This document shows, piece after piece, positions 32,417 through 55,730 of a stretch of DNA of 59,218 nt. This DNA comes from Mesotaenium endlicherianum. Lineage: Eukaryota. The first letter of the stretch is position 1. Every line of letters begins with the position of its first letter. Position numbers and translations under genes: made by a program. The stretch spans positions 255,330 to 314,547 of the forward strand of contig WELA01000395.1 in assembly GCA_009602735.1 (NCBI GenBank), written 5' to 3'. Below the pieces are notes generated by a model that saw only the letters and a list, made by a program, of their open reading frames with translations, searched no databases and was not told where the DNA came from.

Positions 32417-32736
32417 TGTAAAGAGTAGAGTAGAGAGTAATAGGCTTTTATTATAGGAGAGAATGAGTGAACTTAAGCTCTCTGGGATTGAACTTGCAAA
32501 TTAGGGCAAGATCTATGTCGTGCCTAACAGCGTCGGACCCCTGGCACGTGCGTAGCTTCTCAGCACGTGTGCCTTCAACCTGGTCGACGTGTCGGTGCGT
32601 TGCTGCACGTGGGAAAATCGACCGAGTTAATGGTCCCCTGCACGTGTGTCGGTGACGGCAACCAGTTCCTCACTCTACCTTACCAACACTTAGTGGAAAT
32701 TTTCAAAAACTTATCTCATCCTCAGCTTCCCTTACA
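32417..32736 (-). repeat. 3' LTR of element A (~320 bp)
   Basis: On - strand begins TGTAAG and ends CTTTACA, contains AATAAA, preceded by polypurine tract GAGAGGGAGGGG (32737-32748); its first ~176 nt recur at 51737-51912. Confidence 0.75.
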
Positions 32737-32782
32737 CCCCTCCCTCTCAGCTGAGGCGTCCCTGCCTTTCCGTTGAAAGCCT

Positions 32783-35187
32783 CTATCTCCTGGCCTTGCG
32801 GCTGGGGTTTTTAGGAAGGCAGTTAGGACATTCCCATTGTCTTGCCATAATCTCCTCTTCACCAATGCAGAAGGTGTGCCAACGGGCACTACACTTATCA
32901 CAAGTTACCATTGTTTCTTGATCATCCCGCACTTTGCAGCTGGCACAAGGTGTGGCTGGCACCAATTCCTCGGGCACAGTCTTAACTGTAGGATCGATAT
33001 TAGGCAAGTGGCACAGCGAGCAGTTATGCACGTGATCTCTTATGGTTTTACCATCAGAACCTTCCACTTCCAACACACCATTGTCGAACGCATGTTTCAC
33101 GCGTAAGATCACTGCACCTGAACTGGTGTCAATGGTGGTCTTAGTCTGGCGCTTGCGATAGACGAAGTCTCCTTTCTGGATCTGCGTCATTCGCAGGCGG
33201 TAGCTCCCGTCTCGCGTCCTGGCGTAACGCTGTGTGTCTTTTTTCTGTGCGATTTTCAGATTGTCCAGGGCAGCAGGCATCATGTGCTCAAATAACGCCT
33301 TGCGACGTAACATGACCTTTAGAAGTTCATCGAGGTTGTTCAGGTCTTTCACCTGCTCAAACTCCTGCTTGATGCTGCTGGGCACAACTGGACTTCTGCC
33401 AAACGGAATTTGATAAGGCGAGTAATTCGCCAAAGCAGCTTACTTGCTAAATATGTAACCCATAAGCAGCCATGGCAGGGCCATGACCCAATCACGCTTA
33501 TCATGCTCACGGCAAAATTTGCGCAAAGCAGACTTAATGGTTTGCACCATCCGTTCTGCCAGACCATCTGCTTATGGGTGGTCTCCAGACGTAGTGCGAT
33601 GGTCAATGAAGCATTTGTCCAGGAGATCTGAAAAGATCCTTGGAACTCAGACCCTTGCTCTGTCAGCACTTCTGCTGGGGCTCCATGACGTACAATCACA
33701 CCATTGAGGAGTGCTTCCGCGGTCCCCAAGCTTTCCTTAGCAGTTAGAGGCACTACCTCTATCCACTTAGACAAATGCTCAATCATGACCGTAATGTACT
33801 TGTTACCTCGCTTGGACAGCGGTAGCTCACCTGCGAGATCGCAGCTCCACCGGTATCCTAGGCCCATGATTGGCAGAGGTTGCAGGTGTGGGTGTTGCTG
33901 CGTAAAACCAGCCTTGACGCGATCGCAGCTTTTACAGGCCTTGACCACATCCTCACACTGCTGCTTCATGCCCCTCCACCAGTAAGACAGCTCAAGAAGA
34001 TTGAAAGGGGCAGAGTGCCCTAGTGGAAGCGTAGTGACTCACGAGGAAAGGAACTAGTTGCCATCATACTAGAGAGTGCAGCGGCATATCACTAACAAAG
34101 CTTAGGAAAATTACTCAACATTTTGAGTAGCAGGAAACTGCTCACAAATGATGTAGGATGAAAGGCCTTGTCATTACAAACCCGTAGAAATTTACAGAAG
34201 TGAAAACTGCCAAGAAACAAAGAAGTTATGCCTATTTATAATTTTCTGCCTAAGTTCTCCTCCCTAGGAGGAAGCTACGGATTTTCCTAAGTGTTCGTCA
34301 AATCGTCCCTTCCAGAATATTCGTGAGTAAGCCAGATCAGTCTAATCTGACGTGTCAGGCCGAATTGACGTCCACATACATGCATCGACATTACTAGAAT
34401 ATTCTATCTTAGACGCGCTAGGCTAAACCGAAACTTCTAGGTAAATCGACCTAGTCGGCACTCCGCGTCAGCCGAACTTACGTGAAGGTTCGAGTTCATT
34501 CTAACGGGCCAGATCGCTCGACGCTGTCGGTCAATCCGACGGTCGCGCTCACCGCGAATTAAGGACAGTCGTCAACCGACCTCAAAACTAATTAAACTTC
34601 GGAAATCCATAACTCTCTCAATACTTGACCAAATTCGATGAACTTTATATCAAAATGACCACAAAAGTGCACTCTACACTACTATACAATCAAAACATAC
34701 TTTCATGATACTCAAAAATGCACTTCATAAACCTATGACCTTACAAAGATTGTATGTCTTCTTGACACCATAGTGTCCAGTATTCTCGTGCATTTCCTGC
34801 ACCAGAGCTCGCCTTTTGGTGGGTTCCGGCTCCAACTTCTCCTGACCAGTTTCTTCAATCTTGAAGAGGTTATTGCGTTTCCAGCAAAACCGTTTAGCTC
34901 GATGGCTCACTTGGTCCTTTTCTTTCACCGATGATCCTTCCATGTGGAGTCCCGTCTTCAGCCAATGCATAATGGCTTGCTCTTTCCAAATCTCTGGACT
35001 GAACAGGAGTAGAGGCTCAGCTTCTCCTCACGCTACCATTCTAGCCATTTCGGCCAGGTAGGCTGCCAATTGTGCTGGGCTGCTCGGATCTTCGTCTTCT
35101 TGAGCTCCCGTTCTGTCGTCTGCAAATGGGTCGGGGTTCCTGCTGAGTCCATCGCCGTCGTTGTTGAGTATACGTGCTCGATGTATC
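32783..35187 (-). pseudogene. Element A RNase H end and integrase (HHCC, DDE core) with C-terminal PHD finger; split by solo LTR and frameshifted
   Basis: HENTGHYGVKKTYNL|LELSYWWRGMKQQCEDVVKACKSC; WSCDLAG; TEQGSEF; GLAERMV; PHD C4HC3 at 32819-32947. Confidence 0.85.
34002..34745 (-). mobile_element. Solo LTR (744 bp) of element C family with 5-bp TSD AAGAT
   Basis: Reverse complement of LTR 49197-49939; TG...CA ends; AAGAT at 33997-34001 and 34746-34750. Confidence 0.93.
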
Positions 35188-36529
35188 ACTGTTGTAGTGA
35201 AACAGATAGATAAAGTACTTAGTAAAACAGAATACTTTATCTATTCAAGACAAGGATCTTTGAACACAAGTGGTAGCTTCTTGAAAGAGAGATGGCTTCT
35301 TGAAAGTTAATATATTTCTGGATTTTGGCAAGTACAAGAGTGATTCTCCAATGTCTTTCTATGTTCTAGCTCTTGTTTATATACTTGCNNNNNNNNNNNN
35401 NNNNNNNNNNNNNNNNNNNNNNNNNNNNNNNNNNNNNNNNNNNNNNNNNNNNNNNNNNNNNNNNNNNNNNNNNNNNNNNNNNNNNNNNNNNNNNNNNNNN
35501 NNNNNNNNNNNNNNNNNNNNNNNNNNNNNNNNNNNNNNNNNNNNNNNNNNNNNNNNNNNNNNNNNNNNNNNNNNNNNNNNNNNNNNNNNNNNNNNNNNNN
35601 NNNNNNNNNNNNNNNNNNNNNNNNNNNNNNNNNNNNNNNNNNNNNNNNNNNNNNNNNNNNNNNNNNNNNNNNNNNNNNNNNNNNNNNNNNNNNNNNNNNN
35701 NNNNNNNNNNNNNNNNNNNNNNNNNNNNNNNNNNNNNNNNNNNNNNCTCAAATCACTACATCACCCCCCCGATAGAAAAAGCGACGTCTCGGCGCGTCAA
35801 GTAAGGTCTTACACATGTGGAGCAAACTAGTCAACAGTTTCAAGTCAGATGCCACACATGTGAAGAGGACTAGTTGAAGGCGCCAAGTCAGGTGCTACAC
35901 ATGTAAGGTAGACTAGGCAAGGTCGTAGGTGGTGTGACCTTATTGGCTAGCCTACTCCTTAATGATAAAGAAAATTGTACAAGTTGGCCCAGAATCTGCC
36001 ACGAACTCAAAAATTCATAGCGGCCACAGAACTGCTCCAAATCTGAAAATTCGAGTGCCAGACGGACCGCGTCGGAGAACTCTACCGGGTCACCAAATTT
36101 GAGAGCATTCTCATTTCTGGAGTGTCGTTGAGAGCTGAGAGAGTAGGCACTCCTCCAAATCTGTGCAGAAACTTCTGAAAATCATAAGTCCTTCTATACT
36201 TCTCCAAATTCTGCAAACTAAGTCTCAAACTGGGCGCTGTAAGATGTTCTACCAGAGTCTTGAGTTTCAGAGCATTCCAAGTTCAGGGGAGGGCACAATG
36301 TCAGAAGGCATATTCTGCCCTAACAATGCCAGCAGCCTGACCCCCTTCTACTTAGAGCATCATATCTCTCTCACCAGTGCTCCAAATTGAGCAAACTTGG
36401 ACTCTAAATGACCGGCTACTCATGGACTACAGCCAGGTAAATTTTCAGAATTTATTATGCAGAGACCTATCACCAGTAGCAGTTTTAGTTTTCTGTCCAG
36501 AAACTGCGAGAAGAGAAGAGTGTCTAATG

Positions 36530-39500
36530 TCAATTTTTCCTCTTTCTTGTTCTTGCAGGCTGCCTCCAAGGGGTCTTCTGCTGCTTCTTGATGGTGGCAG
36601 GCTGCCTCCCTGAAGTCTTCGGGCTTCTAGTAGAGAGACTTGGGGCTGGTCCAAGATGGGGGTTGGCGGCATGGAAGCGCTTCAACTTTCTCTGAACTTT
36701 GTCAAGGTAGTGCGCCGCCACCCAACTATTCTCCGAATCTGGATATCCTTTCCACTTGATCAAGTATTGCTGCTGTCTCCTGAAATTTCTCATAGCCACT
36801 ATGTCTTCCACTTCGTACTCCAAATGATCATCCACTATTGTTGGGGCTGGTGGGGTTGTCACACGTCCTGGGAACTTGTTGTCGGGTTGCACATATGGCT
36901 TGAAGAGGGAAGCGTGGAATACGGGGTCGATGTGCATAGTCTGGGGAAGTTCTAGCTTGAAAGCAACGGGGTTGACTTGCTGGATAATCTTGAAGGGTCC
37001 CAAATACTTGGGAGAGAACTTGCTGCCGGCAGGCCTGTTGTTCAGGGAAATGTTCTTGGATGATAGTAACACGTTGTCACCCACTCTGTACGTAATTTCT
37101 CTTCTGGATCTGTTCGCCACTCTTGCTTGAGCATCTTGCGCGTGTTGTAGAGCTTTCTTCGCTGCTGTAAGGGCTGCTTCTAATGTCTCCATAAAATCTG
37201 TGGCTGCAGGTACTTCATCATGGCCAGCCGTGAAGCTCAGTGGCGTGGTCGGATGGAAGCCATAGTTGAGGAAGAATGGGGACTCTTGGGTAGAGGCCTG
37301 CGTAGTGTTGTTGTAGGCAAACTCGAGGGGGGTCAAGTACATGTCCCAGTCTTGCTCGAGGGTAGACACGTAGGCCTTTAGAGAGGTCTTTAGGGTACGA
37401 TTCATACGCTCGGTTTGCCCATCTGATTGTGGGTGGTAGGCAGTAGACATATCCAGCGATGTACCCAAGTTCTTGAAGAGATTTTTCCAGAAATGGCTTG
37501 TGAATCTTGGATCTCTATCTGACACAATTCTTGATGGTAGTCCATGGAGTCGGAAGATGTTGTCAAAGATGAGTCTTGCAAGTTGTGGTGCTGTAGCCTT
37601 AGTCGTCGTGGGAATAAAATGAGCCATCTTGGTAAGTCTGTCCACCGCCGTGAGTATTGCATTATGGCCTCGAGGTGTCACGGGCAAGTCCACGATAAGG
37701 TCCATTGAGATGTCCGTCCATTGTCTTTCGGGGATTGGTAGTGGTTGGAGGAGTCCTCCCGCCTTTTGCGATGATGGCTTGATTCTTTGGCATGTGTCAC
37801 AGCTCCTGCAGTACTCCTTGACTTGCTTAGACATGCCTGGCCAACAATAAGTCCTAGCTAGAACGCCCGTGGTCCTTAGGATTCCAAAGTGTCCTCCAAG
37901 AGGGTTGTCGTGTGCTTCTCGTAGAAGCAAGAGCCGGAGGTCTAAGTCATTAGGAACACATCTCTGGCCCGTATCTTGCCTCACCCAATAATTGCCTTCT
38001 TGCTTCTTGCATGGGTCCAAGGCTGCTTCTCCGTTCTTGTAGTAAGGGTCTCTTTCATAGGCGGCTGAAAATCGAGCTTCCAGATCTGTCTTCAGGGATA
38101 CCATCACTGCATTTAATTGCAGTCTTGAGAGGGGGTCAGCCGGGTTTGTCTTGCCGGGCTGGTACTGAATCGTGATGTTGTATTGTTGCAAGTATCCGCT
38201 CCATCTTGCTTGTCTCCTTGAGAGATACGGCTGCGTTTGGAGGTGCTTTAACGCCTCGTGGTCCGTGGTGACCAGTACTTTGCGTCCTTCAACGTAGCAG
38301 CGCCAAACCTTCAAGGCATGTACAATCGCCAATGCCTCTCGCTCCGTGGTTGTATAATTTTGCTCGGCTGGATTTAGCTTCCTTGACTCGTAGGCGATGG
38401 GCTGCAGTCCCTTGCCTTGGTCTTGAAGCAGGATTGCTCCTATTGCATAGGAAGATGCATCGGTGATGACGTGGAAGGGCCAATCTGGGTTTGGACTTGG
38501 GAGTGTGAGCACCGGGGATGTGGTCAATCTTCGCTTTAACTCTTGAAATGCCTCTTCCTCTTTCTCGGTCCATGTATATAGCCTGTCCTTCTTGAGTAGA
38601 TCTGTCAGGGGGGCTGCTATGTGCGAGAAGCCTTGGATGAATTTTCTGTACCAATTGGCAAATCCCAAGAATGACTGGAGTTCTTTCTTGGTCGTGGGGG
38701 TTGGCCATTCCTCCACCACCGTGGTCTTCTTGGGGTCTATCTTGATGCCATCAGCAGTCACGTGGAGACCTAGGAACTCCACTTCTTGTTTGGCAAACTC
38801 GCATTTTGACTCCTTCGCAAACAGCTTGTTTTGCTTCAATACTTCAAGGACTTCTTTCAAGTGTCTCGCATGCTCTTCAAGGGTCTTGCTGTAGATAAGG
38901 ATGTCATCGATGAATACCACCACAAATCTGTCCAACATGGGCTGAAATATGGTGTTCATCATAGTCATGAAAGTTGCTGGCGCGTTGGTGAGTCCAAATG
39001 GCAGGACCATGAACTCAAAATGTCCATATCTTGTCCTGAATGCCGTCTTCTCTATGTCCGGTTCTGCGATGCGAATCTGGTGGTAGCCGCTCCGTAAGTC
39101 AATCTTCGTGAAGTACTTGGCTCCAACCAGCCGGTCCATGAGCTCATCCATGCGCGGCAGCGGGTATCGATTCTTGATGGTGATCTTGTTGAGGGCGCGA
39201 TAGTCCACACACATCCTCAAGGTACCATCTTTCTTCTTGACAAATAGCACCGGGGCTCCAAATGGCGACTTGCTAGGTCGAATGAAGCCATGCTCCAGTA
39301 GCTCCTTGATTTGCTTCTTGACTTCGTCTAGCTCCGTGTATGACATTTTGAACGTAGGCCGAGAGATGGGCTTGCTTCCGGGCTCCAACTCTATCTTGTG
39401 GTCTACGAATCTTTTGGGGGGTAGGCCCTTGGGCAATTCCGGGGAGAACACTTCTTTGTAGTCCTCTAAGACTTCTTGTATCTCCTTGGGAACGGGGCTG

Positions 39501-40138
39501 CCTTCTTGACTCTCGATGTCTTTCTTGATGTCTTTTGGCGTGATCAAGGCCAAAAGAAGCTCGTGTCCCTTCCTCACAAGTCTCTTGAGTTGGAGGGCGG
39601 ACAATAGTATCTCGTGTGCCGGCTTCTGGATGTCTTGGGTCTGGATATTCTGGATTGCGCGCAAAATACAGATTCTTGAAGTGATGTCATTCTTGATCTT
39701 GATAGTACCGGTCCTCCAATCAACTTGGGGGTTGTGCTTGGTCAACCAAGGCGTCCCTAGGATGACGTCGTACTTGCCCAATTGCATGGGGGAGAACACT
39801 ACTCTATCCTTGAAGGACTTGATAGAGAGTGCCAAGGGGTACGTCTTCTTGGAAGGGGTAGTATAGGAGAATCCATCGGGCATCATAATCTCCTCGTCGT
39901 GGTCAAGAGTTCGCATAGTAATACCGTGCTTGGTGGCAAAATCTGCAGCAATGAAGTTGCCTTGAGCTCCGCTATCCACCAAGATGTGGACCTTCTCTCC
40001 TCCAAGGTAACCTCTCAAACTCATTGGGGCTGGAACGTCGTCTTCAACGGGGGTCTCCACCTCACTTGGCGTGTTGCCTTCTCGTGAAGTGGGTCTTGGG
40101 GTGGTAGGCTCCTGGCCTACCGGCGCTGTCCGTTTTTT
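36530..40138 (-). CDS. pol: Element B Pol: protease, RT, RNase H, integrase, chromodomain (expressed by -1 frameshift from gag)
   Basis: LVDSGA; FIDD; TDAS; HHCC; SMDLI/SDRD/QTER; YEVEDIV...[15 protein letters not shown]; uninterrupted ORF. Confidence 0.95.
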
Positions 40139-41397
40139 GACAACTTTTTGGGGCATGAAAGTGCACGATGGCCCTTTTCCTTGCAATAAAAGCATAGTCC
40201 AGCCGTCATGAGAGCTTCTTTTTCAGCCGGGGAGAGTCTTGCTTTCACTCCTTGCTGGTTTCTTGCATCATAAGTGTCATTGGAGGGTCTTCCACTCTTC
40301 CGGGCAGCCGCGGGGTCCCTTTTAATAACTCCGATTTCCATGGGTGTGGGTCCAGATTCGGATGTGGAAGGGGCTGCGTACACCCGCGTCGTCGGTACCC
40401 GTGAAGATGAAGGCACGGAGTGCTTGAAATCCAAGGTATCCACCTTTTGGGCCACTTCAATGATCTTTGAGAAGTCCGTCAAGTCGCGTAACTCCACTTC
40501 CTTTGCCACCTTGGGTTTGAGGCCAAAGATGTAGCGGTCAATCTTCTCCTCGAGAGACATGTTGGGGATCTCAAGAGTGAGGGCGTGAAATCTGGATGTA
40601 TACTCTTGAACGGACGTCGTTTGCTTGAGATGGTGGAGCTTTCCTCGGGCAATCTTCTCCGCATTGATGGGCATGAATTGCTTCTTGAGGGCCTCACGAA
40701 AATCTGCCCATCTTGCATATGATGGTGGGGGCTCTTGGCCGAGCATGGGGTGCGCCATAGCTTGATATATAGCCGCTTGATAGTTACGCCACCATGATGT
40801 TGCTGCTCCTCTAAGTAAGGTAACGGCAAAGGGAACGTAGTCCTCCTCGGGTACTTCAAGGAATGCGAGGTACGTCTCCACTTGGTAGAGCCATAAATTC
40901 AGGTTGGCACCTTTCCCGGGGTTGAAAGTGTCGGGTTTGCCGGGCTTGATGAGTTTCCTTGCTCTCGTTGGCTCTTGTGGAGGCGCTTGAGCCGGGGCTG
41001 GATTTTGAGCATTGCTCGCAATAGGGGCAACCATGGCAGCCATAGCTTCTCTTGACGCTTGCACGGTTGCTTCATAGGTGGCCAAGCCCACTTGGTTGTG
41101 GACGGTCATTAGGAAGGCTGCCCACTCATTTGCGGGAACTCCTTGTGGTGGGGTCAACTTTGCTATAGCGGCTGCCACGGGATTTGACGGTGCTCCTCCT
41201 TGTGGTGCTTCTTGTTGTTGGAGATTTCCTTGAGTAGGCTCTCCCATCGACGCTGGAGGAGGGTGTGCTCCTCCTTGTGGTGCTTCTTGTTGTTGCAGAT
41301 TTTCTTGAGTGGGCTCTCCCATCGGCGCTGGAGGAGGGTGTCTTGGAGAGGAAGGGCTTCCTTCGAAAGCTTGCTGTTGGTCTTGAGGATCGGCCAT
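40117..41397 (-). CDS. gag: Element B Gag (426 aa) with CCHC zinc knuckle and a 75-bp tandem duplication at 41191-41340
   Basis: KPDTFNPG...W...[10 protein letters not shown]...GPTPMEIG...[14 protein letters not shown]. Confidence 0.93.
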
Positions 41398-41942
41398 CTT
41401 CTTGTGCTACCAAAGTGCCTAGCTCCGATACCACTGTAGTGAAACAGATAGATAAAGTACTTAGTAAAACAGAATACTTTATCTATTCAAGACAAGGATC
41501 TTTGAACACAAGTGGTAGCTTCTTGAAAGAGAGATGGCTTCTTGAAAGTTAATATATTTCTGGATTTTGGCAAGTACAAGAGTGATTCTGGAATGTCTTT
41601 CTATGTTCTAGCTCTTGTTTATATACTTGCTACATAAGTAATTTCTAGGAAGGTGTATGTTGATGTGTTGGCACCCAACACATCCCAAAACTTGCCACCT
41701 CTTTCTAGAATAATGTACACATGTCCTTTTGACCTAAAAATGGCACATCTGACTTTTGCCACATGGAGTTCTTCTAGGTCTTTCCTCTAACTTCGAAAAT
41801 GCCTTGGAAGGTTCAAAGGACATGAACCAAGTTACTAGAGTACCTATTCACACTTGAATCCACACAATACTACTCCAAATATATTTGAAAACATTAAAAT
41901 ATATGCATACTAATATATAATAACTCAAATCACTACAACTGT

Positions 41943-43300
41943 CATCTGGTACTCCTGGAGCTTGGAGCTTGAGAGCCCAGCGAGCCAATTTACCAGTGAG
42001 GTCTCCATTGTTCATCAGCCAGAGTAACGGCGAGTGATCTGTGATCATTGTGAAGGGTCTTCCCCATAGATACTCTCTGAAATGTGCAACAGCCCAAACC
42101 ACTGCCAGTAGCTCTCCTTCGTAGGACGAGTAATTGCTCTCCGCTCGGTTGTTAGAGCGCGAGGCATAGGCAATGACGTACTCCTCTCTAGGACTTGCAG
42201 CCTGAGGGAGTACTGCGCCGATTTCCACACGACTCTAGTCAGTGTGTAGATTGAAAGGCTTGGAGTAGTCGGTTTTCGCAAAATTGGGGCCATTACCAGA
42301 CGCTCCTTGAGCTCGTTCATGGTCTTCTCCTGGGCTTCCGTCCACACAAAAGGTACGTTCTTTTTTAGGAGTTTTGTCAAGGGTTTAGCAATTTTGCTTT
42401 AGTCCTTCACAAATTTACGATAGTATCTGCTTAGTCCTAACGGGGCTTTCAGCTTAGACACGTTCGCTGGTGCAAGTATCTTGTAAATGACTTCAGTCTT
42501 TACAGCCTGAGGGGATATAGCATTGTTCCCAATCTCATGTCCTAAATAAGGCACATGTGCCTCAAAGAATCTGCATTTTCTAGGTTGCAGCCTCATCTGG
42601 AATTTCTCCAGGCGCTGGAACACTTGTTCCAAGTGCTCGAGGTGCTCTTTTATGGACTTGCTAAACACCACCACGTCATCGATGTAGGGTTTTGCAAAAT
42701 CCAGCCCCTCCAGCACTTTGTCCATAGTCCTCTAAAAGATGGCAGGAGCATTTTTCAACCCAAACGGCATTATCGTCCATTGCCAAAGTTCCCTTGGAGC
42801 CCAGAATGCGGTCTTACCTCGATCTTCTGTTTTCACAGGGATCTGGTTGAAGCCTTTGCGTAGATCGATGGTGCTGAACACCTTTCCGGTGGTAGCAATC
42901 GCAAAGACCCGCTCTGGTGTAGGCATCACATAGTTGTCTGGCTCCGTGTGAAGATTCAGTCGTCTGTAGTCTCCACACATATAAGTGGCGATATAATTGC
43001 CAGCCTCGTCCTTCTTGGCAACTACTACTGTGGGAGCTCCATGTACTGAGGTTGATTTCTCAATCATGCCGAGCTTGTGCAGCACCTGGCAAGTTTTCTC
43101 CATACAGTCCCATTCGGTCTAACTGAGCTTATGCGACCCAAGTCTAACTGGGTTATCAGTATTTAGTGTGATCTCACACACACTGGCAGTGATTCTACCA
43201 ATCTCCTCCTTGGTAAAAGCAAACACCTTGCGGTGCTTCTTCAGCAGCCTTTCTACTTATGCTCTTTGTTGAGCTGAGACCATTTTTCCAATACTGAAAA
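41943..43300 (-). pseudogene. Element A reverse transcriptase and RNase H (stops and frameshifts)
   Basis: MCGDYRRLN, IDLRKGFNQIP, MPFGLKNAPAIF*, PYIDD, YVIAYASRSNNRAESNYSSYEGELLAVVWAV, TDH, ARWALKLQ. Confidence 0.9.
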
Positions 43301-45499
43301 CCTCAGTTTCTAGCTGCTTTTCCCCAACACAGGCATCCAGTAGTTGCTACTCTTTGGGTCAAGGTGGGGGTATTCTGCCCTCATCCTGACCTTCAGGCTT
43401 TTTTGCCTGATTGTTAGGAGGTGGAGTGGCAGGCCCGTAGCTTGCTGCTCCACTGCTTTAGGCTCGACTGCCCGCTTCCTAGGCTTTTTACCTTTCTCGA
43501 TGGATCGTCGACTCTCGTGTTGAGTGGGGTATGTCACACGCCTCCGGATGGGCTGCCTCAAGAACCTTTCTTCATCTGCAGCAGTCCAGCTGGTCCCTGT
43601 TCCTCCCTCTTCACGTGGCGGGGGCGGATTTGGCAACGGCCACCCTGCTAGATCTGCTCTGGGGTCAATTGTCCAACCCCATTCGCGCTCAATAGTAGTA
43701 ATGCGCGCAACGGTTGTGCCAAACTCCTCCTTGGCTGGTGGCGTAAGCGTCCATGCTTGTGTCAACGTCTGCTGTCTTTGAGCCGCAGCTAGTTGTGCGT
43801 ATACAACATTTTCTGCTGTCAAGCGGCTTATGGTGCTTCTCAGCTCTACCAGTTCCCTTTCAGAAACTCAGATGTCTTAGGAGCTGAACTGTCATTTTCC
43901 CACGTTCCAGTGGATGAAAGACGCACCATGGGAATGTGAATTCATAGTGCCATGGCTTTGCGAATCAAGCCATCCTCTCCTTCTCTCTGCAAAATCTCCA
44001 GGATAGGTTGCGGAGGTGGAGCCATGGTTCCTTTTGGAACCCCTTCTCTCTAAGCTGTTCCCCTATACTTGAGATAACGCATCAACATCCGCCTGAAAAA
44101 TGCATTTCCTTCCCGGGCTACCTTCCTTGGTCTGCTTGCGCGACTGCGAGGATTACCTTGTGTTGGTTCCACCTTAGCGGTACAGGCAGCCACTTCCTGC
44201 GGCTGTTGTAGCTGATGGGAAATAGCTTCTGGTGCTGGAAAACTGGCGGTTGGGGTGCTGGATGTAGGCGACCTCAAATTGTTGTATAGATCTGATGGGC
44301 TGGGCCCCTCCATGATCAAGTGGTTGGCCACCCAGTCATCCGTCCTGAGCTTTTGTAGCTCCAACAGATCCAGCTCTGGGGTAGGAAAACGTGCAATTTC
44401 TTCTTGAATCTTCTCTTCATTGGTGACTGGCGGCAGGTCGAACCCTGGAAGACCTGGCATTTCTGCGTCATCTTCAACTGACGTCTCCACTCCAGGTGGT
44501 GGCGGCTCTTCATCATTATCTGTGTTGAGGTTCGCCAAGTTGACAATGGCTGATTGCAGTGTGCTTGCTACCTTAGCCACTTCCTTTTCCTTGTGCTGTC
44601 GAGCGTCTGCTTCCAGCAGCTGCTCAATGATTTGCCTTGTAATGGATTCAGCTGTTTGAACTATCTGAACCCTGCTGTTGCCCCTAAGCCTGCGGCTCTG
44701 GACTCACCAAAGCAGGTGTTGTAGGCAATTTCTTGTCCAACTCCTCCTAGCGTTCTTCGAATATCACTTTGAGGCATATGGTCTTTGCAGACCCTCCAGA
44801 ATCTCCTAAATTCTGGCTACTCTCTTCAGCCCACTCACCAATATTGCACTGGCGTTCTCGCCCTAATGCTTGGTTTAGATAATATCCAATTTCTTCAGGC
44901 GTTGGCTCAGGAGTCTTCTTCTCAGACTCTTTTGACATGTCTTGTAATGGCGCTTGCTCTTGTGAAGACGACAGACACTGTTGGTTAGCTTCCCAGCTAC
45001 TTGAGCTAACCTGCCAGTAGTCTCCGCGCCCAGCTGCTCTTGGGTTGCAGTTGATATCATACCCTGATCTGGCATCTTCTGGAGTCTCCTCACGTCTTGA
45101 TGTCGTGGCTCCGGGGGGTGAGCTCCCAAATATCTGGCTGTGAGGGGCGTTTCTCACAGATGATGGAGTGTTTTGCGTATCGTCTTCTACTCTTGGCAGC
45201 GGCGTTGCCTGCTCAGGTGCCTCGTCCCCCATGGGTGTATCTTCTTTTTCCAGAGGTGCTTGTAATTTATTGGTCCAGTTATCAATCCGGTCCAACAGAT
45301 CCTGGCATCTCCTAAATTCAACCACCCTAGCTTGCCTGAGTGCTCTGTCTCTAGCAGCTTTCGCTGCGTCTCTTTGCACACCGTATTCTTCTTGTTGCAG
45401 GTGTGCCGTCCTGATAGCTCTTTGATCAGACGTTAGCACCACATTAACTCCAGTTGTCACTGGTCTTGTCCTCGGCATAGGCTTGTCAGTGAAAGTCAG

Positions 45500-46312
45500 C
45501 TGCTGCCATGTCATGATTGTTTCCACCAACCAAGTCATAGAGTGCTGCCCAATCATGTTGCCGAAAATCTTTGCAGCTTCATCTGACCCTACAGCACCGG
45601 CTATATGTCGAGCTATGTTGTCGGGTATTCCAAGGCATTTGCCCTTCTCCACCGCAGTAGGCTCTCTCCAAACGGCGTTTCATTCATGCATGTCTTTGAC
45701 CATTCCTGGTTTACCTCCTCCGAAGGCTCGGGATCTTGGATATGCTGTGAAGGTTGGCAGTACCACCCTTGGCTGACTTGGTTCGTTGATGACACACTGT
45801 GGATAGGAATCCCTCCTGGCCACCGGTCTGGTATGCACCGCCAGCGCCTCTTCCACTGTCAATGTCGTTGATGATCGTCGTGTAATGTCCTCCATCTCCC
45901 TCAGGACCTCAATGGATATGCCATTGGTCCAAAATATCCTGGCCCTATGGGATATTTCTCCGTGCTTGGCGTCGGTGATTAACACATGATGGCCCAAAGT
46001 GGAGTCGAAAATCAGCCATGGTTCTCCCGGCTTCATCTGCTTGTAATCCATTCCTGGATGTACATTCTCAATCACAAACACTGGTGGGTAATAGTGCTGT
46101 CGTTCCCGCAGCATGCTGATGATTTTCACCATCCATCCCCAGTGTTGTGCTCGTGGATAATTGAATCCGCTCCGATTTCTAGCTTGAGAAAACGGTTGAC
46201 AAGGAAATCCGGCAAAGATTAAGTCAATTTTGTAGCCATACAGGTGTTCAGGCTTCACATTGATGATGTTGCCTCCAGCGATGCGCTCGACATTGCTATA
46301 TGTGGGCGCCAT
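45500..46312 (-). pseudogene. Retrotransposon-encoded C5 cytosine DNA methyltransferase domain (DNMT3-like), motif I deleted, one in-frame stop at 45680-45682
   Basis: Motif IV DLIFAGFPCQPFS, motif VI FVIENV, motif VIII TDAKHGEISHRARIFWTN, and in the same frame after the stop motif IX REPTAVEKGKCLGIP and motif X KIFGNM. Confidence 0.88.
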
Positions 46313-46314
46313 CC

Positions 46315-49300
46315 TTTAAAATGATGCATTTGCCTCCACAGAGAGCTATGGAGCACAAGATTGAGTTGGAACCAGGGAGCAAGCCACCAGTGAGACCCGC
46401 TTATCGTCAATCGTTTGCGGAGTTGGATGAGTTGAAGAAGCAGCTGACAAAGTTATTAGAGAAGGGATTCATCCGACCCAGCGAGTCTCCATTTGCAGCG
46501 CCAGTTTTATTTGTGAAGAAGAAGGATGGGACTATGAACATGTGTGTCGACTACCGGGCACTCAACAAGGTCACCATTAAGAACAAGTACCCACTTCCAC
46601 AAGTGAACGACTTGATTGACAGGCTTGTCGGCGCGAAGTATTTCTCGAAGATTGATTTGAGGATTGGCTATCACCAGGTACGAATTGTGGAAGGAGACGT
46701 TCAGAAGACTGTCTTCAGGACTCGTTATGGCTTATTCGAGTTCACAGTCATGCCTTTTGGATTGACTAATGCACCTGCTACATTCATGGGACTCATGAAT
46801 AGTATCTTCAGACCCTACTTGGACCAGTTTGTGGTGGTATTTTTGGACAACATCTTGATCTATTCGAAGACCTTGGAAGAGCATGTGGAGCATCTGAAGG
46901 TGTTGGAGGTCTTGAGAGATCAGAAGCTGTATGGAAAGATGAGCAAGTGCGACTTCTGTCTCAAGGAAGTCGAGTTTCTTGGGCACATAGTGGGGGCTGA
47001 AGGAGTCAAGATGGAGCAGAAGAAGGTGCAAGCAGTCAGAGATTGGCCAATACTTGCTGATATTCATCAACTCAGAAGTTTCCTCGGCATGGCGAATTAT
47101 TATCGACGTTTCATTGAAGGATTTGCCAAGGTGTGTGCACCGCTCACGGACATGTTAAAGAAGCAGGAGAAGTGGCTATGGGGTGACAAGGAGCAGCAAC
47201 CCTTCGATAAGATTAAGGAGCTGTTGACACACGCACCTGTGTTGGCAATTGCCAGTTTAGAGCTTCCTTTCACCATCATCACGGACGCATCAAACTTTGC
47301 AGTGGGAGCCATTCTTCACCAGGACCAAGGCAAAGAATTGCAACCTATGGCATATGAGAGCAGGAAGCTGAGTCCTGCTGAGCAAAACTATGCAGCACAC
47401 AAGCGGGAGATGTTGGCTATTATCCAGGCTTTGAGGATTTGGCGATGTTATGTGGACGGCCGGAAGGTGTTCATCAAGACCGACCACAAGACCTTGGAGA
47501 AGTTTATGACGCAGCCAACGTTGACACCAAGACCAGCAAGGTGAATGGAATTTTTGCAACAGTTCGATCACAAGATTAAGTACTTAGCTGGGAAGATCAA
47601 CCCTGCAGACGTTTTATCCAGGAGGTGTGACCTTGCAGCTGTCTCAGTCATCAAGGAGAGTATGGACTTCAAGGAGAAGCTTCAGAGAGGTTATGAAGAG
47701 GGCTCAGAGTTTGTTCACGGGAGAGCAGCTGAGTCCAACTCAAGTATGCAGAAGGATATAAGGAGGACCCAGAGTATGCTGACGGTGGAGCAGCTGAGTC
47801 CAACTTGAGTATGCAGAAGAAGGACGGTATATGGTATTATGGTGATTCCAAGAGAGTGGTGGTACCTGACATCAAGGAGCTACGAGACTTACTACTTGCG
47901 AAGCATCATGAGTGCTTATATGTTGGACACTTTGGAAGCGAGAAGACGGCAAGCGTGCTGAAGCGGAAGTACTATTGGAGAAATATGGACAAGGACAATG
48001 AAGAATGGATCAGGAGTTGCGATGCGTGCCAACGTAACAAGACACCAAATCAAAAGAAGGGAGGTACATTGCAGCCCCTACCTATTCCAGAGTATCCTTG
48101 GGAGCAGATTGCTATGGACTTCGTCACATCTTTACCAGTGAGTGGTCAAGGGCACAATGCAGTATGGGTTGTGTCTGATAGACTCAGCAAAATGGCACAC
48201 TTCATTTCCATGAAGGAGACTTCTACGGCAGCAGATGTGGCACGGCTGTTCTTTGATATTTTCAAGCTACATGGGTTGCCGAAGGTGATTGTTTCAGATT
48301 GGGATCCAAGGTTTACTAGCAACTTCTGGCGGTCATTGTTTACTTTGATGGGGACCAAGCTGAGTATGAGCACTTCCTATCATCCTCAGACAGACGGGCA
48401 GAGTGAGAGGCTCAACAAAACTTAGCAAGAGGTGCTCAGGAGTTTCACTATGGAAGACCCTAGAGTGGGACATGAAGCTGCCAGGATTGGAGTTTGCCTA
48501 CAACAACAGCATGCAAGGATCCACCAAGCAATCACCATTCACTATAGTTTATGGGAGAGAAGTATATCATCCAGGGAACATCTTGTTGGAGAAGGCCGAG
48601 GAGATTCAAGTTCCTACTACACAAGCTTTTATGGAGCGGATGGCCAAGACTTGGGATATGGCGAAGACGTGTATTCGGAAGGCACAGAAGAAACAGGTCA
48701 AGTATTCCAACAAGCACAGGAGGGAAGTGACATACCATGTGGGTGACAAAGTACTCTTGTCAACAGAGAACCTACCTTTCACAGGCAAGACAAAACTGCG
48801 GGCACGGTTTACAGGTCCCTTTGTGGTGCTCAAGCAGGTTAATCCAGTGACCTACAACTTGGAACTTCCTTCAGGCTGGCGTATCCATGATGTGTTCCAT
48901 GTCAGTTGTTTGCGGTCATACGTTGACCCAAACGAAGGACATCCAGGACGACTACCTACACCGCCACCACCGGTTGAGATCGATGATGTGTTGGAGTATG
49001 AAGTGGAGGCGATTGTCGACGATCGACGAGTCAAGCAAGGTCAACGATTTGTCCAAGAGTATCTGGTCAAGTGGAAGGGCCACCATGCGGACGACAACAC
49101 TTGGGAGCCAGAGGCCAACTTGACTCATTGCAAGAGTAAGTTGAGGCGTTATCCACAGAATGCGTCGAGGACGTCGCATCTTGAGGAGGGGGATGATGTA
49201 AGGTCATAGGTTCATAAAGTGCCTTTTTGAGTTTCATGAAAGTATGTTTTGATTGTAGATTAGTGTAGAGTGCATTTTTGTGGTCATTTTAATATAAAGT

Positions 49301-49939
49301 TCATCGAATTTGGTCAAGTATTGAGAGAGTTATGGATTTCCGAAGTTTAATTAGTTTTGAGGTCGGTTGACGACTGTCCTTAATTCGCGGTGAGTGCGAC
49401 CGTCGGATTGACCGACAGCGTCGAGCGATCTGGCCCGTTAGAATGAACTCGAACCTTCACGTAAGTTCGGCTGACGCGGAGTGCCGACTAGGTCGATTTA
49501 CCTAGAAGTTTCGGTTAGCCTAGCGCGTCTAAGATAGAATATTCTAGTAATGTCGATGCATGTATGTGGACGTCAATTCGGCCCGACACGTCAAGTTAAA
49601 ATGATCTGGCTTACTCACGAATATTCTGGAAGGGACGATTTGACAAACACTAAGGAAAATCCGTAGCTTCCTCCTAGGAAGAAGCACTTAGGCAAAAAAT
49701 TGTCTATAGGCATAACTTCTTTGTTTTTTATCAGCTTTTACTTCTGTAAATTTCTACGGGTTTGTAATGACAAGGCCTTTCATCCTAGTACATTTGTGAG
49801 CAATTTCTTGGTACTCAAAATGTTGAGTATTTTTCCTAAGCTTTCTTAGTGATATGAAGCTGCACTCTTTAGTATGATTGCAACTAGTTCCTTTCCTCGT
49901 GAGTTACTATGCTTCCACTAGGGCACTCTGCCCCTTTCA
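46315..49939 (+). mobile_element. Element C: 5'-truncated chromovirus (RT, RNase H, integrase, chromodomain, PPT, 3' LTR 49197-49939), decayed
   Basis: RT FLDN (catalytic D mutated); TDAS; integrase; YEVEAIV...YLVKWKG...TWEP; PPT GAGGAGGGGGATGA; LTR TGTAAG...TTTCA; stops at 47544 and 48425. Confidence 0.92.
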
Positions 49940-51530
49940 GGCCCCCAATTTCTTTCATTTTTTCCTTGTTTGCCTCTTTCATGGCAGCATTTGCCCAAGG
50001 CGATCTTAAATTTGGGTTCTCAGACCAACACTCATCTTCTGAATGTCCCTTCTTGCTGCAATGTGCACATATCTGTTCCTTGCTAGTAGATAATTGCTTA
50101 GCATCTGGGTACGGACAACCCCTCTTCTGATGTCCTGATTTCCCGCACTTCCAACAGCTCTCTGCGGTTTCAGCAGTGTTGGCATGCTTAGCAAACGTGT
50201 TGAAAGACCCGCTCTTTTTCTTAAACTGAAAATTAGAGCTGTTGGCCTTAGGTGGAGAGGATTCCTCCCTCCTCTCAGGAGCCATAAGCGTTTTGGAAGC
50301 CTCTTTGTACCACACTTTACCTTCTTCAACATTGCGTGCTATTTCAGCCGCCTCGTCGATGTCCCAGTCAATCCCGTGCTTTGCGGACAGATGTGGCCTG
50401 ACTTCACGATCTGTTTCCTTGCCCAAGCACAACAAAAACTTGTCAGCCACTATTCTGGGCTCGTATATTCTTGCCTTTTTTGCGTGGTCTACCAATCTAG
50501 ATTTAACCTCCATGACTGTCTCGTTCTTTTGACGGACAAAATGCACATAACAGTGCACCTTAAGACTGCGATCTTCTGGGAATCGTGCTTGAAGCAACTT
50601 AAAGAAACAGCGCAGACAATGCTCGGGGTCTAGTTGGTCATCCCCAGCCTCCATATCCTTACGACAGCTAGCCAGGGCTTGCGCATGGCTTGCCTCTGTC
50701 GTGGCGCTATTGCCTTGCTGGCCATTAAAAGGTGCAGCTCTGCGTGTTACTCGTTCTTGAGCAATAGCAATCTTTTCAGACAATTCTGCACACACTTTTC
50801 GCAACTCTGTGACAGAGCCGGCATCATCGCTCTGAGTAGCAGCCCTTCGCTGACCCTCAGTGAGTTGCCTCATGGCCTCTGTTAATTCTTGTGTTAGTGC
50901 AGCTAAGCCTATGCTCTCAACAGGTGCAGTTGGCATTGCTCTTCCCGAAGATAGAGCAGACATTCGGGCTTTCGCAGCCTCTTTCTGGATTTTCAAATTC
51001 CGTGCCCTTTTCTGTTCTGCAAATGCCCATTCTTGGGTGAGATCCTCATCCTTCCGGAATTGGCGATATAGCTGCAGGGCATCCTTGTCCAAGTACTGAA
51101 CCAAGCCTATAAGTGCGACAGATTGCGTATAAGAAGAATCCTTCCGAATCTTCTCAAAGAATTTCGCCCAATAGATTTCATCAAACTCTTTGAAAGTCAG
51201 ACCATTTCTGCTGGTTCATCCGCTAAAGCACTTTGCAGACAGCTTGAACTTAGGATTTTCATCCCGATCATCACCGGCCATTTCGAACGGTGACCAGGAC
51301 TCACTGACTCTTCCCCACACGTCTTGCTCTCTGCCCTCAGGTACAAAGGCTTGTGTGTTATCCGGGTTTTCACCGCTTGCGGAGATATGACGGGACTCGT
51401 CTCTCGACAGTTGCTCACTCCACCTGTTGTCAGTATGCTCAGACGTTTCACTTCCTCGTGGACTCTGGCTAAAATCAAAACCTTCTACAAGCTCCACAGA
51501 GTGTTAGAGTCTTCCACTCTTTAACCGCAT
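49940..51530 (-). pseudogene. Gag of element A (two zinc knuckles), cut at 49940 by element C LTR; in-frame stops near 51505 and 51216
   Basis: CWKCGKSGHQKRGC and CAHCSKKGHSEDEC; RQKNETVMEV; frame continues upstream to MRLKSGRL at 51530. Confidence 0.8.
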
Positions 51531-53786
51531 ATACAGTTGAATTTCTCCGGTTCCCCTTCCAGGTTGAACACCGGCAGCCTTCACAGGCCTCAATCCCCAA
51601 CTGACTTGGGAATTCTTGTTCACCTGAACCAATCGAACAAGTTCTCAGAAGTAGGACAGAAGCGTCTTACTTCCCCACAGGCTTTTGTTCAAGTTGAGGG
51701 TTTACAGAATGAACAAGTTTTGTGGTTTGCAGGATTCAGCACGTGTGCCTTCAACCTAGTCAACGTGTCGGTGCGTTGCTGCACGTGGGAAAATCGACCG
51801 AGTTAATGGTCCCCTGCACGTGTGTCGGTGACGGCAACCAGTTCCTTACTCTACCTTACCAACACTAAGTGGAAATTTTCAAAAATTTATCACATCCTCA
51901 GCTTCCCTTACAAGGGCAGAAGTGTCTTACTTTCACACAGGCTTTCGCCCTAGTTGAGGGTTTACAGAATGAACAAGTTTTGTGGTTTGCAAAAATCACG
52001 TCTAAGCAGCTTAACAGGCAATGCCAGATTCAGAGAAAATCGCCCTTCAAGGCTTTCGCTTAACTTCCACAAGTCACAGCTTACAAAACTCTGAAACTGC
52101 ACATCTACGCTGGCCAGGCCTGAGCTCTTCACTCAGCACCGCGCCTTAATAGCTCTTCACTGTTCGGCTGGGCTCACTCAGTTCTTCACTGAGAGCTTTA
52201 CTTGTTAAGGCTACTCTTGCTATCAGCAATTCGACAATTGAGGCTTCTGAGAACTTAGAAACTAACACAGCACTCACCATTTTAAGTGTCTCTCGCACGC
52301 TTGTGGCGTTTGACCCAAATCTGTGCTAATCTCCTAACATATTCTATTTTGCAGCTCTCCACCTTCTACCAGCGAGATCCTCCCTTGGGAACTCCTAAGG
52401 TCTAACCTTTCTATGATATACTTAGGAAGAAAATCTTCCAGCGTCGGCAGAAGCGTGGCGTCTCGGTTCTTCTATGGCCTTGAGAACTCCTTCTTCGTCG
52501 TGCTCCCTCCGCTTCTTCAACTTCCTCTGACAACAATGCGAGCAAGAATCAAGCAGCTTCAGGACTTGTGCCTTTCACAGGCACCACACATTGTCCTCTC
52601 TCGAGAATGCCAGTGCTTAGTCAGAGTGCTTAACTTGCATGCCGTCCTTAGCAGCTCTCACACCGCTTAGGAATTGTCATTCTGCATGCATGCATGCCTT
52701 GGGATTGTCGCGCGTGAGTGCTTAGCCCTTCAGCTGACAATCATACTTATGTGGCTGGCTGGCAACGTTTAGGATGCACGCTCAAGCCGTGACTTAGTCA
52801 CTTGAGGGTCTTGGCTGAGGTGGCACATAACGCCTCTGCAACATCCCTGCTGTACTTGGCTTAGATAGCCAATTGATCAGCACCTTTCCGGGCACTTGCT
52901 GGTTCCATACCCTTAGCCTTTCGACTGACTACTCCACTCAAATCCCCATCCATCCCTGGGCGTGGGTTTGACGCGTCGTGACCACTTTGACAGTGATGAC
53001 GACTTTGAAATGATCGCTGACTGTGATCTCTCGGTCCTTTGGTCGATTAGTCAACGCTGAATACCTGGGCGGCCGTAGCTTGTGCTGCGCGTGCGGCACC
53101 GTCAAGTGAATAGTCGTCGCGACATCTATGGAGAGGCGGGCTTGAATAAGCCCGCCTCCTTTCATTCTTTCTTTCGAGATCATCAGACATATATTTTATT
53201 GTAGATTAAATCCATATTTTACTGTGCCTTCTGACGGGTAAAACCACTTCTTTTTCCATCATCAAATTACGCATTGCTTCCTCCACTCGGTTTCATCTTG
53301 AATTTCTAGCGCCACTATTCAGTTCTGTACGATTCGTACACCAGCAGAGCATCCCAGGCCAGAAGCAGCCCAGAAGGCGGGAGGTGGATGCTGCAGGATG
53401 CTGCACGATGCCGGCATGTTATGCACATGCGTGTGGTGCAGGTCAGTGCAGGTAGATTGGGAATTCCTAGATCCTCCCACTCACGGCAAAGTGGTAGCGG
53501 GCAATGGTGCGTTTAGTAGCAGGTGCCAGGTTATAGTCCAGTGGGAGACATTGCTGCAGGGAAGAACAGGAGGGTCGTGCAGGGCAGTGCAGGTTACAAG
53601 TAAGGGTCCTGTCTTATCGCGCCCTTAGACGAGACCGAGCATCTGGCCCAATTCTGTGACGCTTGACCTAAGCAGGCTGCTTCGTTGTACTGGGAAGAGC
53701 ACGGGGAAGGAAGCTCTAGTCGCCATCTATATTGTGTTACTGTCAGTGAATCATCTACTTTAGAGGTAATTAACTTAGTCATAATA

Positions 53787-55730
53787 ATGTCTAGTTGGGA
53801 GTTAAGTACACCAGCAGTAGAAGGGGGCCCGCAAGGTACCATTGTATATACTTCTCAAGATAGCTCCCTTAAGAAGGTCTCAGAAGTTGCAGTGGGAGGA
53901 GTATTGGTTCTTTTAATAGTCATTATCGTCATGATGTTCATGAGACGAATAAGAGGACGTTGGTTAGTAGCTAATAGACAAAACCAGGCCACGACATTTA
54001 TCCTTCAAGCAGGCCAGGAACCTGGTAATGTTGTTCTTGTGCGAGTTGGAGAGCAAAGTGGACTTGATCCTCAGAGGATTAGAGAGTTGGGTCCTACCCT
54101 TGAATATTCAGCGGAGATTGGTTTGGAGGTCAAGGGAGGAAAGTCGTGTCCCGTATGTTTGGGAGACTACAAAGACAAGGATATGTTGCGAAAGTTGGAA
54201 AAGTGTGAACACTATTTTCATCAGGTTAGTGCCGACGCATCCTGCAGTTTGTTATTGACAGGAAGTTGAGTATTCTTTGAGAATCGGGTGGTTGCCAATC
54301 TTGAAGTGAATATGTTTCAAATTTGTCTGCGTCAAAGTCGCATGCTTGCCTGTCGTCGCGGTAATTATGTTGAAGGTGGTTGGAAGGAATGCCATGCTTG
54401 CTTGTCAGCAGAGGGTTATGAAGAAGTTGGTTGAAAGGAATGCAAAATGGTCATCTGTTTGAGGCGAATGGCAAAGTCCAAAAGCCTTGTATAACATCAT
54501 TTGAGAATGACCTGTACAATTTCGAGGACCTATGGAAATGGACTCTACTTATGAAAGCTGACATGAATGATAGAGTATATTCCTTTGATAGTGGAACATG
54601 TGCGAAGTGAAAATGATTGAATGCAAGCGAGTAGCATAGTACTTGTCACTTGTTAATGCTCTCTTGGTCAATGATATTCTGCTTGTCCTATGAGCTCATG
54701 CGCAGTGCAACTAAGTCATCCAGCAATATATTGGTGTGGGTCATATGGGGTTTTAATTCCACGTCATATGAGTGCCGGTGCTAGAACATCATAGCTTCAT
54801 GTGTGCCCTTCCCCGCTTTTTCTTCAGATTATTGAAACACCATCTTTGCCAGGAATGTCTCAGAAATAGAGAACTCTCTCTTTCTCTCTCTCTCACTGGA
54901 CCCAGTGATATACCTCTTGTTACTTAAGTGTGTAGTAAAAAGATGTGGTAATTGAATACTTACCTCTTGTCATCTTCAAATTTTAGGGGCAGTATGTATG
55001 AGGGTGAAAACTGGCTCAGTAGCGGGGCAATTGTTGGCAATGATCACATGTACAACATGGATATATATCGCAAGGTTGCTGGGTCTGCTTGTTTTATTCA
55101 TGAAGTACTTTGCCGCTTGCACATTTGCTAATAATGATCAGCATTCTGCTCACCAGATTCACGCCCATGTTCTAGAAACTCTTCAATATATATTCAATGC
55201 TTGGGTTGTGGGCAATGTGACAGATGCTTGCAGGCATGTGATGTGGGGATTTGCAATGATGCCTTTCATTGTGCAACCGTTGCTGCTTGAAGTGTGTCCT
55301 CCGCCTTCTGTCGTCCATTTTAAGTTTGATATATGCACAGTGGCCGCAGAAGCATGCTTGTTTGCGCGTGTGCTAGTGCATGTACATGTCTCTACGCCTG
55401 CTCATGTACATATGCACTGACATGCACATACAGCTCCATTGTGTTGTTCCTTTTGAAGTTTGTTTGCTAAGGTATAGTGCATGTTTCTTGGTTTGTTGCG
55501 TGCAGGAATGCATCGATGAGTGGCTCCAGAAGAGTGCCACTTGTCCAATCTGCCGCGTCTCTTACCTGCCAGAGGGCCCCAACTCCGCACCAGCGTCGGC
55601 TGCTCCTGCAGGCCCCAGCAGTGGTGAAGGTCACACTCACGGTGGCAGTCATGCTGTCAATATCCCCCCTGGGCATGCCCATGTGGAAGGTGCAGAGGCA
55701 GTTAGGACTCCCACGTATGTTGCCGGCTGA
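53787..55730 (+). CDS. ATL-family RING-H2 E3 ubiquitin ligase (~220 aa); exons 53787-54224, 55506-55730
   Basis: TM helix VAVGGVLVLLIVIIVMMF, basic stretch, GLD motif, CPVCLGDY...KCEHYFHQ|ECIDEWLQKSATCPICR; phase-0 GT-AG intron. Confidence 0.92.

Follow-up and report, generated by a model that had tools for sequence, protein, structure and literature searches.

A dead, nested Ty3/Gypsy retrotransposon copy with a DNMT3-type cytosine methyltransferase ahead of its reverse transcriptase

Introduction

Does the locus around 46 kb of a 59,218-nt stretch of Mesotaenium endlicherianum DNA (the whole stretch analyzed, hereafter the window) belong to a retrotransposon equipped with its own cytosine methyltransferase, and what would such an element do with the enzyme? 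Elements bearing the silencing enzyme of their hosts have rarely been published. A sequence-only reading of the window proposed a dead Gypsy copy with a DNMT3-like domain (DNMT) between gag and the reverse transcriptase (RT), and named de Mendoza et al. (2018) as a precedent. The accessible portion of that paper (PMC5890265) bears this out: it describes KnitGypsy-Dnmt3, a Gypsy element of Klebsormidium nitens that carries Dnmt3, and reports purifying selection on this domain. DNMT3 in retrotransposons of streptophytes and dinoflagellates is also mentioned in the available part of PMC12344493, whereas the available part of PMC6317226 mentions neither PHD fingers nor methyltransferases.

Results

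Translation of the minus-strand frame 46312-45500 matched PF00145 in Pfam with 50.6 to 51.1 bits (cut-off, 22; E about 2e-13), as the sequence-only reading had anticipated. The motifs that it had placed in a single frame on the coding strand of the element were all located there: GFPCQ (motif IV; 46210-46196), ENV (motif VI; 46069-46061), and HRARIFW (motif VIII; 45949-45929), followed in the same frame by the motif IX-like REPTAVE (45667-45647) and the motif X-like FGNMIG (45565-45548). The catalytic PC, ENV, and RxR residues are thus retained. Pfam, profile, and fold comparisons together delimited an N-terminally truncated DNMT3-type C5 cytosine methyltransferase domain at 45500-46332 (minus strand), interrupted by one in-frame TGA stop (45682-45680). 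A profile built exclusively from relatives of the domain, with the window excluded, scored the frame at 161 bits over profile positions 98 to 340 of 343. No other stretch in the six frames of the window exceeded −1.6 bits, indicating that profile positions 1 to 97 (motifs I to III) are absent from the window; consistently, the SAM-binding motif I (FxGxG) was not found in its DNMT copy. A deletion at the junction with a chromovirus (∼46333) eliminated motif I and also removed the protease that, judging from the relatives, an undeleted element would be expected to encode. The stop codon and the missing motif I, both already noted in the sequence-only reading, make the DNMT copy of the window a pseudogene of its family.

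The host of this domain is a dead, nested, and thrice-interrupted Ty3/Gypsy LTR retrotransposon, which occupies ∼51.9 to 32.4 kb on the minus strand, less three younger insertions. Its parts follow the Ty3/Gypsy order gag-(protease)-RT-RNase H-integrase, with a polypurine tract and a TG...CA LTR behind them and the protease deleted in this copy, which upholds the assignment to Gypsy. The 5′ LTR piece (51736-51912, minus strand) consists of the first 177 bp of the repeat and shares 97% identity with 32560-32736. Of the 320-bp LTR, the other 143 bp were not found upstream, and the 5′ end of the element is therefore rearranged. No target site duplication matching the ends of the DNMT element was found, with 177 of the 320 LTR bases present on the 5′ side. 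An 86-bp repeat (51913-51998, minus strand) is 87% identical to 51653-51738, and the pair flanks the 5′ LTR fragment. We considered whether the succession of 86-bp, 177-bp, and 86-bp repeats, coding region, and 177-bp repeat amounts to a DIRS-like mirror layout, and rejected it; the lower identity of the 86-bp pair (87% versus 97% for the LTR pair) and the skipping of ∼260 to 310 bp at this repeat region in other copies fit a local duplication instead. Several CACGTG palindromes lie within the LTR sequences (32560-32736 and 51736-51912).

A gag-like open reading frame (ORF) with two CCHC knuckles (49940-51215, minus strand; zf-CCHC E of 0.014, below the Pfam cut-off) is cut at its 3′ end by a chromovirus fragment inserted on the plus strand (46333-49939), which comprises RT, RNase H, integrase, chromodomain, and a 3′ LTR (49197-49939). 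The 5′ half of this fragment was deleted along with the gag end, protease, and DNMT motifs I to III of the host element, and the loose ends of contigs at 46333 run on into chromovirus sequence. Between DNMT and RT lies a low-complexity linker of ∼720 codons with stops and three frame switches (43340-45499, minus strand), which matched none of 281 proteins and gave exclusively weak, subthreshold rows in Pfam. RT and RNase H (RVT_1 and RT_RNaseH; 41938-43339, minus strand) carry stops and frameshifts, and the RNase H end is split by a younger chromovirus (35193-41937, minus strand) with open gag and pol, a chromodomain, and a 5-bp target duplication on both sides. This insertion is young, with overlapping open gag (429 amino acids) and pol (1,230 amino acids) frames and LTR parts 99% identical, and read depth in the region examined peaked, by a wide margin, at its LTR. 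The RNase H end and the first half of the integrase H2C2 zinc finger follow at 34746-35192 (minus strand). The zinc finger is in turn interrupted by a solo LTR (34002-34745, minus strand), 94% identical to 49197-49939 and again flanked by a 5-bp target duplication. The integrase core (rve E of 2e-7; Integrase_H2C2) and a C-terminal PHD finger (∼32947-32819; PF00628, 26.5 bits against a cut-off of 24) occupy 32783-34001 on the minus strand, and the polypurine tract and 320-bp 3′ LTR with TG...CA ends (32736-32417) complete the element at 32417-32747 (minus strand). The two 5-bp target duplications join RT-RNase H and integrase-PHD into one element. For the link of gag to DNMT, interrupted in this copy, the evidence consists of the shared piece of LTR, weak phmmer matches of the gag ORF, exclusively to polyproteins with DNMT before RT (P0012, P0201, P0035, and P0061), and a contig joint connecting 51257 to 43878 in another copy. 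The proposed position of DNMT between gag and RT is thus right as to order, but the 3.6-kb chromovirus fragment and the 2.2-kb linker intervene.

DNA sequencing runs revealed that DNMT is a feature of many diverged copies rather than a one-off. Runs X1, X2, and X3 derive from one sample, which may be the source of the window itself, and X8 is from another study. Single DNMT sites were covered by up to 28 distinct contigs in X1, and X8 yielded a 265-nt DNMT piece with 20 differences. Summed depth in X1, which is not a copy number, was 10,754 to 11,912 for DNMT and 30,276 to 33,921 for RT, and the DNMT/RT depth ratio ranged from 0.34 to 0.48 over the three runs of the one sample. One contig joint skips 44817-46311, so that DNMT is missing from that derivative. 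Together, the ratio and the joint point to many related copies that either lack DNMT or are less than 80% alike in this region. No intact copy of the family was seen. Of the three frame switches lying between DNMT and RT, two (∼44660 and ∼43870) coincide with single-base indels in other copies; the third, near 43330, showed none among the rows displayed. These indels suggest that DNMT and RT would share one reading frame within the family, as they do in the relatives P0153, P0201, and P0185.

Three RNA runs, sampled at 6, 13, and 24% of each, had zero depth over 42574-46280, except for two bins of X11 at 0.5 to 0.65, whereas the neighboring chromovirus was covered by reads in all three; the family is thus close to silent in those samples. 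A search for runs containing the sequence returned no RNA run among those listed. In X14, >1,000 RNA reads were confined to a short stretch at the polypurine tract and LTR start of the chromovirus (49160-49204); they continue into other sequence on both sides, indicating that an expressed locus elsewhere shares this stretch. DNMT could, on these data, be an inherited and dispensable passenger that is being lost and confers no current benefit. The depth of DNMT plus linker, ∼1/3 to 1/2 of that of RT and gag, the derivative that skips DNMT, the long terminal branch of the window's DNMT, and the scarcity of RNA reads are all compatible with such decay. However, any LTR family commonly contains deletion derivatives, and the same depth ratio results at the 80% cut-off if DNMT diverges faster. 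Furthermore, the remaining motifs are all intact at 32 to 34% identity to the nearest relatives, which speaks for long constraint and renders the passenger explanation improbable.

An exhaustive phmmer search with DNMT retrieved 343 proteins at E ≤ 0.001. Among the best 150 of these, 77 DNMTs shared their protein with gag, RT/RNase H, or integrase: DNMT followed RT/RNase H in 49, preceded integrase in a fragment without RT in 21, preceded RT in 5, and followed gag in 2, with no such domain shown in the other 73. This distribution and the contigs described above settle in favor of a family-level domain the question of whether a single exon had been captured. The catalytic C was conserved in 132 of the 150, E in 145, and the two R residues in 149 and 148, and a motif I-like pattern occurred in 110. 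A PHD finger accompanied DNMT in 13 of the 27 relatives scanned, and in the largest group of relatives DNMT lies directly ahead of integrase. Of 20 relatives looked up, six had a recorded organism, namely, Scenedesmus sp. PABB004, three Closterium strains, Klebsormidium nitens (KFL_013780020), and Mesostigma viride. The Scenedesmus pol protein (KAF8056149.1) has DNMT after RNase H and before integrase, and DNMT before RT, as in the window, was found in Klebsormidium, Closterium, and Marchantia. Best identities of the window to the relatives were 32 to 34% for DNMT and 49% for RT. Word-based homolog searches with DNMT recovered none among 393 and none among 289 candidates, consistent with a family whose relatives all lie at or below ∼35% identity, and metagenome scans for DNA around the relatives yielded no loci.

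Among 120 rows from an independent search with the RT of the window, 10 were DNMT-bearing polyproteins, 9 of them with DNMT before RT (including Closterium and Marchantia Mp_2g26090), and 20 were PHD-bearing polyproteins. Gag-protease-DNMT followed by RT-RNase H-integrase is the order found in Klebsormidium and Closterium proteins; the domain order of the window is thus no novelty. Members of the group with DNMT after RT/RNase H (P0028, P0018, P0034, P0038, P0070, and others) often end in a C-terminal PHD finger, and the only member with a recorded organism belongs to the chlorophyte Scenedesmus sp. PABB004. The annotated Marchantia gene Mp_2g26090 (P0214), with which P0189 of Calypogeia fissa was grouped, encodes a DNMT-RT-RNase H protein that belongs to this lineage and is truncated; gene models of this kind could be mistaken for host DNMT3 genes in counts.

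Proteins whose RT matches were short or duplicated were omitted from the RT tree, as were the majority of the odd-numbered DNMT-after-RT rows and of the generic Gypsy rows. In its 78-row version, the window and all DNMT-bearing rows formed one clade (SH-aLRT, 97) that comprised 15 other DNMT-before-RT rows, 24 DNMT-after-RT rows, and 23 rows in which the ORF starts too near RT to tell the DNMT order. The DNMT-after-RT rows made up a subclade (SH-aLRT, 100). Kinship of the window's element with those of Klebsormidium, Closterium, and liverworts is thereby shown. Its exact position is unstable: with 40 rows the window was sister to four DNMT-before-RT rows (94), with 78 rows it was sister to the whole clade instead, and its DNMT was flagged as a long branch. 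P0210, a Gypsy polyprotein with a Dam-type methylase family domain (PF05869) and a PHD finger, fell outside the DNMT3 clade of the RT tree.

The type of enzyme was assessed by profile and fold. Among the 59 solved sequences that matched the relatives' profile at E ≤ 1, DNMT3A/B/C ranked first (69 to 88 bits), followed by DRM (49 to 57), HhaI (35 to 44), DNMT2 (18 to 29), and DNMT1 (12.5). An AlphaFold model of the domain from 50 sequences reached a pLDDT of 88 (37.6 for a single-sequence fold), and its structural matches were DNMT3B (Z of 17.0; rmsd of 3.1 over 223 aligned residues), DNMT3A (Z of 15.9), and HhaI (Z of 14.4). Foldseek E-values tied the DNMT3 and HhaI groups, whereas TM-scores and rmsd favored DNMT3. 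The motif order is unrearranged, unlike that of DRM. The predicted DNMT3-type membership is supported by these two rankings, both of which DNMT3A/B head.

The sequence-only reading had taken GFPCQ for a bacterial feature of the enzyme. The motif is no bacterial graft, since AGFPCQ is also present in the Klebsormidium element (KFL_013780020); F occupies the corresponding place in 17 of the 150 relatives. In a DNMT tree confined to retrotransposon and viral rows, from which subsets of the DNMT rows were left out, the window and 25 retrotransposon DNMTs separated from 14 viral methyltransferases (of 80 viral loci) with an SH-aLRT of 99. The family profile gave these viral enzymes 21 to 44 bits and the window 161. 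Capture of a host exon, or of a bacterial or viral methyltransferase, by this copy alone is extremely improbable on such evidence. It could draw on the resemblance of GFPCQ to HhaI, on a single-sequence PDB search topped by bacterial enzymes, but only at E of 0.02 or worse, and on ESM Atlas neighbors that are generic, partly viral PF00145 clusters. However, the best relatives are retrotransposon polyproteins matched across nearly the whole domain, whereas the strongest of 8 phage records listed (of 182; E of 2e-9) spans residues 4 to 135 only. Furthermore, the base composition of DNMT is that of the element (GC of 0.49 versus 0.48 to 0.51 elsewhere in it), two host-like ORFs having 0.64 to 0.68. 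Multicopy cover of DNMT in the DNA runs and coclustering of RT and DNMT refute such a capture.

Discussion

The window thus holds a dead copy of a published kind of element, already described from a charophyte alga. With its Dnmt3-type domain in the Pol region and its many copies, it falls into the Gypsy-DNMT3 class of streptophytes. In K. nitens, KFL_013780020 (zf-CCHC, protease, and DNMT) and KFL_013780010 (RT, RNase H, and integrase) lie on one 7,497-bp contig; both are presumably among the copies reported in PMC5890265. They share the domain order of the window and its DNMT and RT clades, and KnitGypsy-Dnmt3, as described in the accessible text of that paper, likewise has an intron-free Dnmt3-type domain in the Pol of a Gypsy LTR element. 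The differences are substantial. The hosts are not the same, the window's DNMT is <28% identical to that of Klebsormidium, which is not among the 14 nearest rows, and the DNMT-RT linker of ∼720 codons compares with at most ∼140 residues in 15 relatives. The window's element has a PHD finger, and none is mentioned for KnitGypsy-Dnmt3 in the accessible part of PMC5890265. The legend to Fig. 4c of that source ascribes DIRS-like repeats to KnitGypsy, whereas in the window a plain TG...CA LTR follows the polypurine tract; no B-A-B repeats were found behind the coding region. Membership in the KnitGypsy-Dnmt3 family itself was rejected on this account, i.e., the plain 320-bp LTR in place of a DIRS-like layout.

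The database relatives, i.e., Closterium GJP34393.1, CAI7886383.1, CAI5973665.1, and CAI7855100.1, Marchantia Mp_2g26090, Mesostigma Mv19666, and KAF8056149.1, have the same DNMT family and, wherever RT is present, the same RT clade, but they differ from the window in identity (at most 34% in DNMT and 49% in RT) and, in the Scenedesmus type, in the location of DNMT between RNase H and integrase. SymbioDIRS-Dnmt3 and SymbioLINE-Dnmt of Symbiodinium also carry a C5 methyltransferase, the DIRS type with Dnmt3 in Pol, but they belong to other element classes (tyrosine recombinase or LINE) and represent independent captures according to the available text of PMC5890265. The EpiLTRs of Euglena and Cymbomonas combine an LTR element, a C5 methyltransferase, and a chromatin reader; the accessible part of the preprint (bioRxiv 10.64898/2026.05.21.726589) attributes to them a DNMT sister to DNMT4, a DAM adenine methyltransferase, and a chromodomain, and calls them distinct from streptophyte Gypsy-DNMT3. 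We rejected this identity, too, as neither DAM nor chromodomain was found in the scanned ORFs of the element and the enzyme is of DNMT3 type.

What appears new in the window, judged by sequence comparison, is a very divergent family (at most 34% identity) with a long linker. Of greater interest are the relatives, a single RT clade of green plants in which DNMT3 occurs at two positions and a PHD finger is found as well. We found no published description of such elements in desmids, liverworts, or chlorophytes, nor of the second domain order with DNMT between RNase H and integrase, in a search that covered mostly literature outside subscription. The trees hint at one old green-plant lineage with two DNMT positions. 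Tentatively, and short of an even chance, Gypsy-DNMT3 may constitute a single ancient lineage (chlorophytes, Mesostigma, Klebsormidium, desmids, and liverworts) with DNMT3 plus PHD, in which DNMT would have changed place a single time, from ahead of RT to the interval between RNase H and integrase; the high-copy family of the window, with its 720-codon linker, would be the deepest branch found, and the writer-plus-reader module would mirror animal DNMT3 with its histone-reading finger. As the relatives show, the design occurs widely among green plants, in two domain orders; it bears on the origin of plant DNMT3 and DRM and supplies dozens of naturally intact domains for activity tests.

The preferred reading as a whole, i.e., a dead copy of a DNMT3-bearing Gypsy element whose enzyme would methylate the element's own cDNA, has a probability of roughly 0.6 in our estimate. 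That the element is a multicopy Ty3/Gypsy retrotransposon with a DNMT3-type methyltransferase before RT and a PHD finger after integrase is highly probable; methylation of cDNA in cis as the job of the enzyme stands at about even odds. Pol domains of Ty3/Gypsy elements are packaged into particles, the site of cDNA synthesis. In live copies, DNMT would be part of the Pol polyprotein in one frame with RT and, packaged with RT and integrase, might gain first access to new cDNA. De novo CG methylation of this cDNA, or of the fresh insertion, would make it resemble ordinary methylated DNA of the host. The PHD finger C-terminal to integrase probably recognizes histone tails at the target, comparable to the chromodomains of chromoviruses. 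Self-methylation of cDNA was proposed as a hypothesis by de Mendoza et al. (PMC5890265).

Base composition bears on this role. The CpG observed/expected ratio is 0.52 to 0.64 in the element versus 0.54 to 0.66 in the neighboring DNMT-less chromoviruses, and the 25 listed copy-specific C-to-T sites, a selected subset of >1,000 rows, fall into background contexts (3 CG, 6 CHG, and 16 CHH). With CpG loss no greater than that of its neighbors and such contexts, the element carries no compositional mark of self-methylation. The enzyme may be real with a different role, whereby DNA or chromatin binding steers or protects integration together with the PHD finger, or host DNA is methylated around the insertion. 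The unremarkable CpG loss, the frequency of PHD fingers beside DNMT among the relatives scanned, and the placement of DNMT next to integrase in their largest group would suit such a function, as would the lack of methylation by the Klebsormidium Dnmt3 domain in yeast, a result termed inconclusive in the accessible text of PMC5890265. By the same source, however, the related SymbioDIRS-Dnmt3 domains of Symbiodinium are active, performing de novo CG methylation in yeast, and the retention of catalytic and SAM-binding motifs across very distant relatives points to catalysis. We regard a role other than cDNA self-methylation as rather unlikely and retain cis-methylation as the preferred reading.

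Other features of the window

The ORFs of the window are intron-free, GC-rich, and of low complexity; together with its chromoviruses, they would suit a green alga or seed-free plant, and the named relatives sharing the DNMT order of the window are streptophyte algae and liverworts. A RING-type zinc finger ORF (53667-54269, plus strand) lies just upstream of the DNMT element. At 11436-14540 (plus strand), an intron-free ORF of 1,034 codons contains extended G/S/P runs and, at its C terminus, weakly matches a leucine-rich repeat. The gene at 18259-22588 (plus strand) is UDP-glycosyltransferase-like and intron-free; it contains N bases and a nearly identical tandem duplication of 1,129 bp, which may be an assembly artifact. 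Finally, a tRNA-His (GTG) gene is located at 25025-25098 (plus strand).
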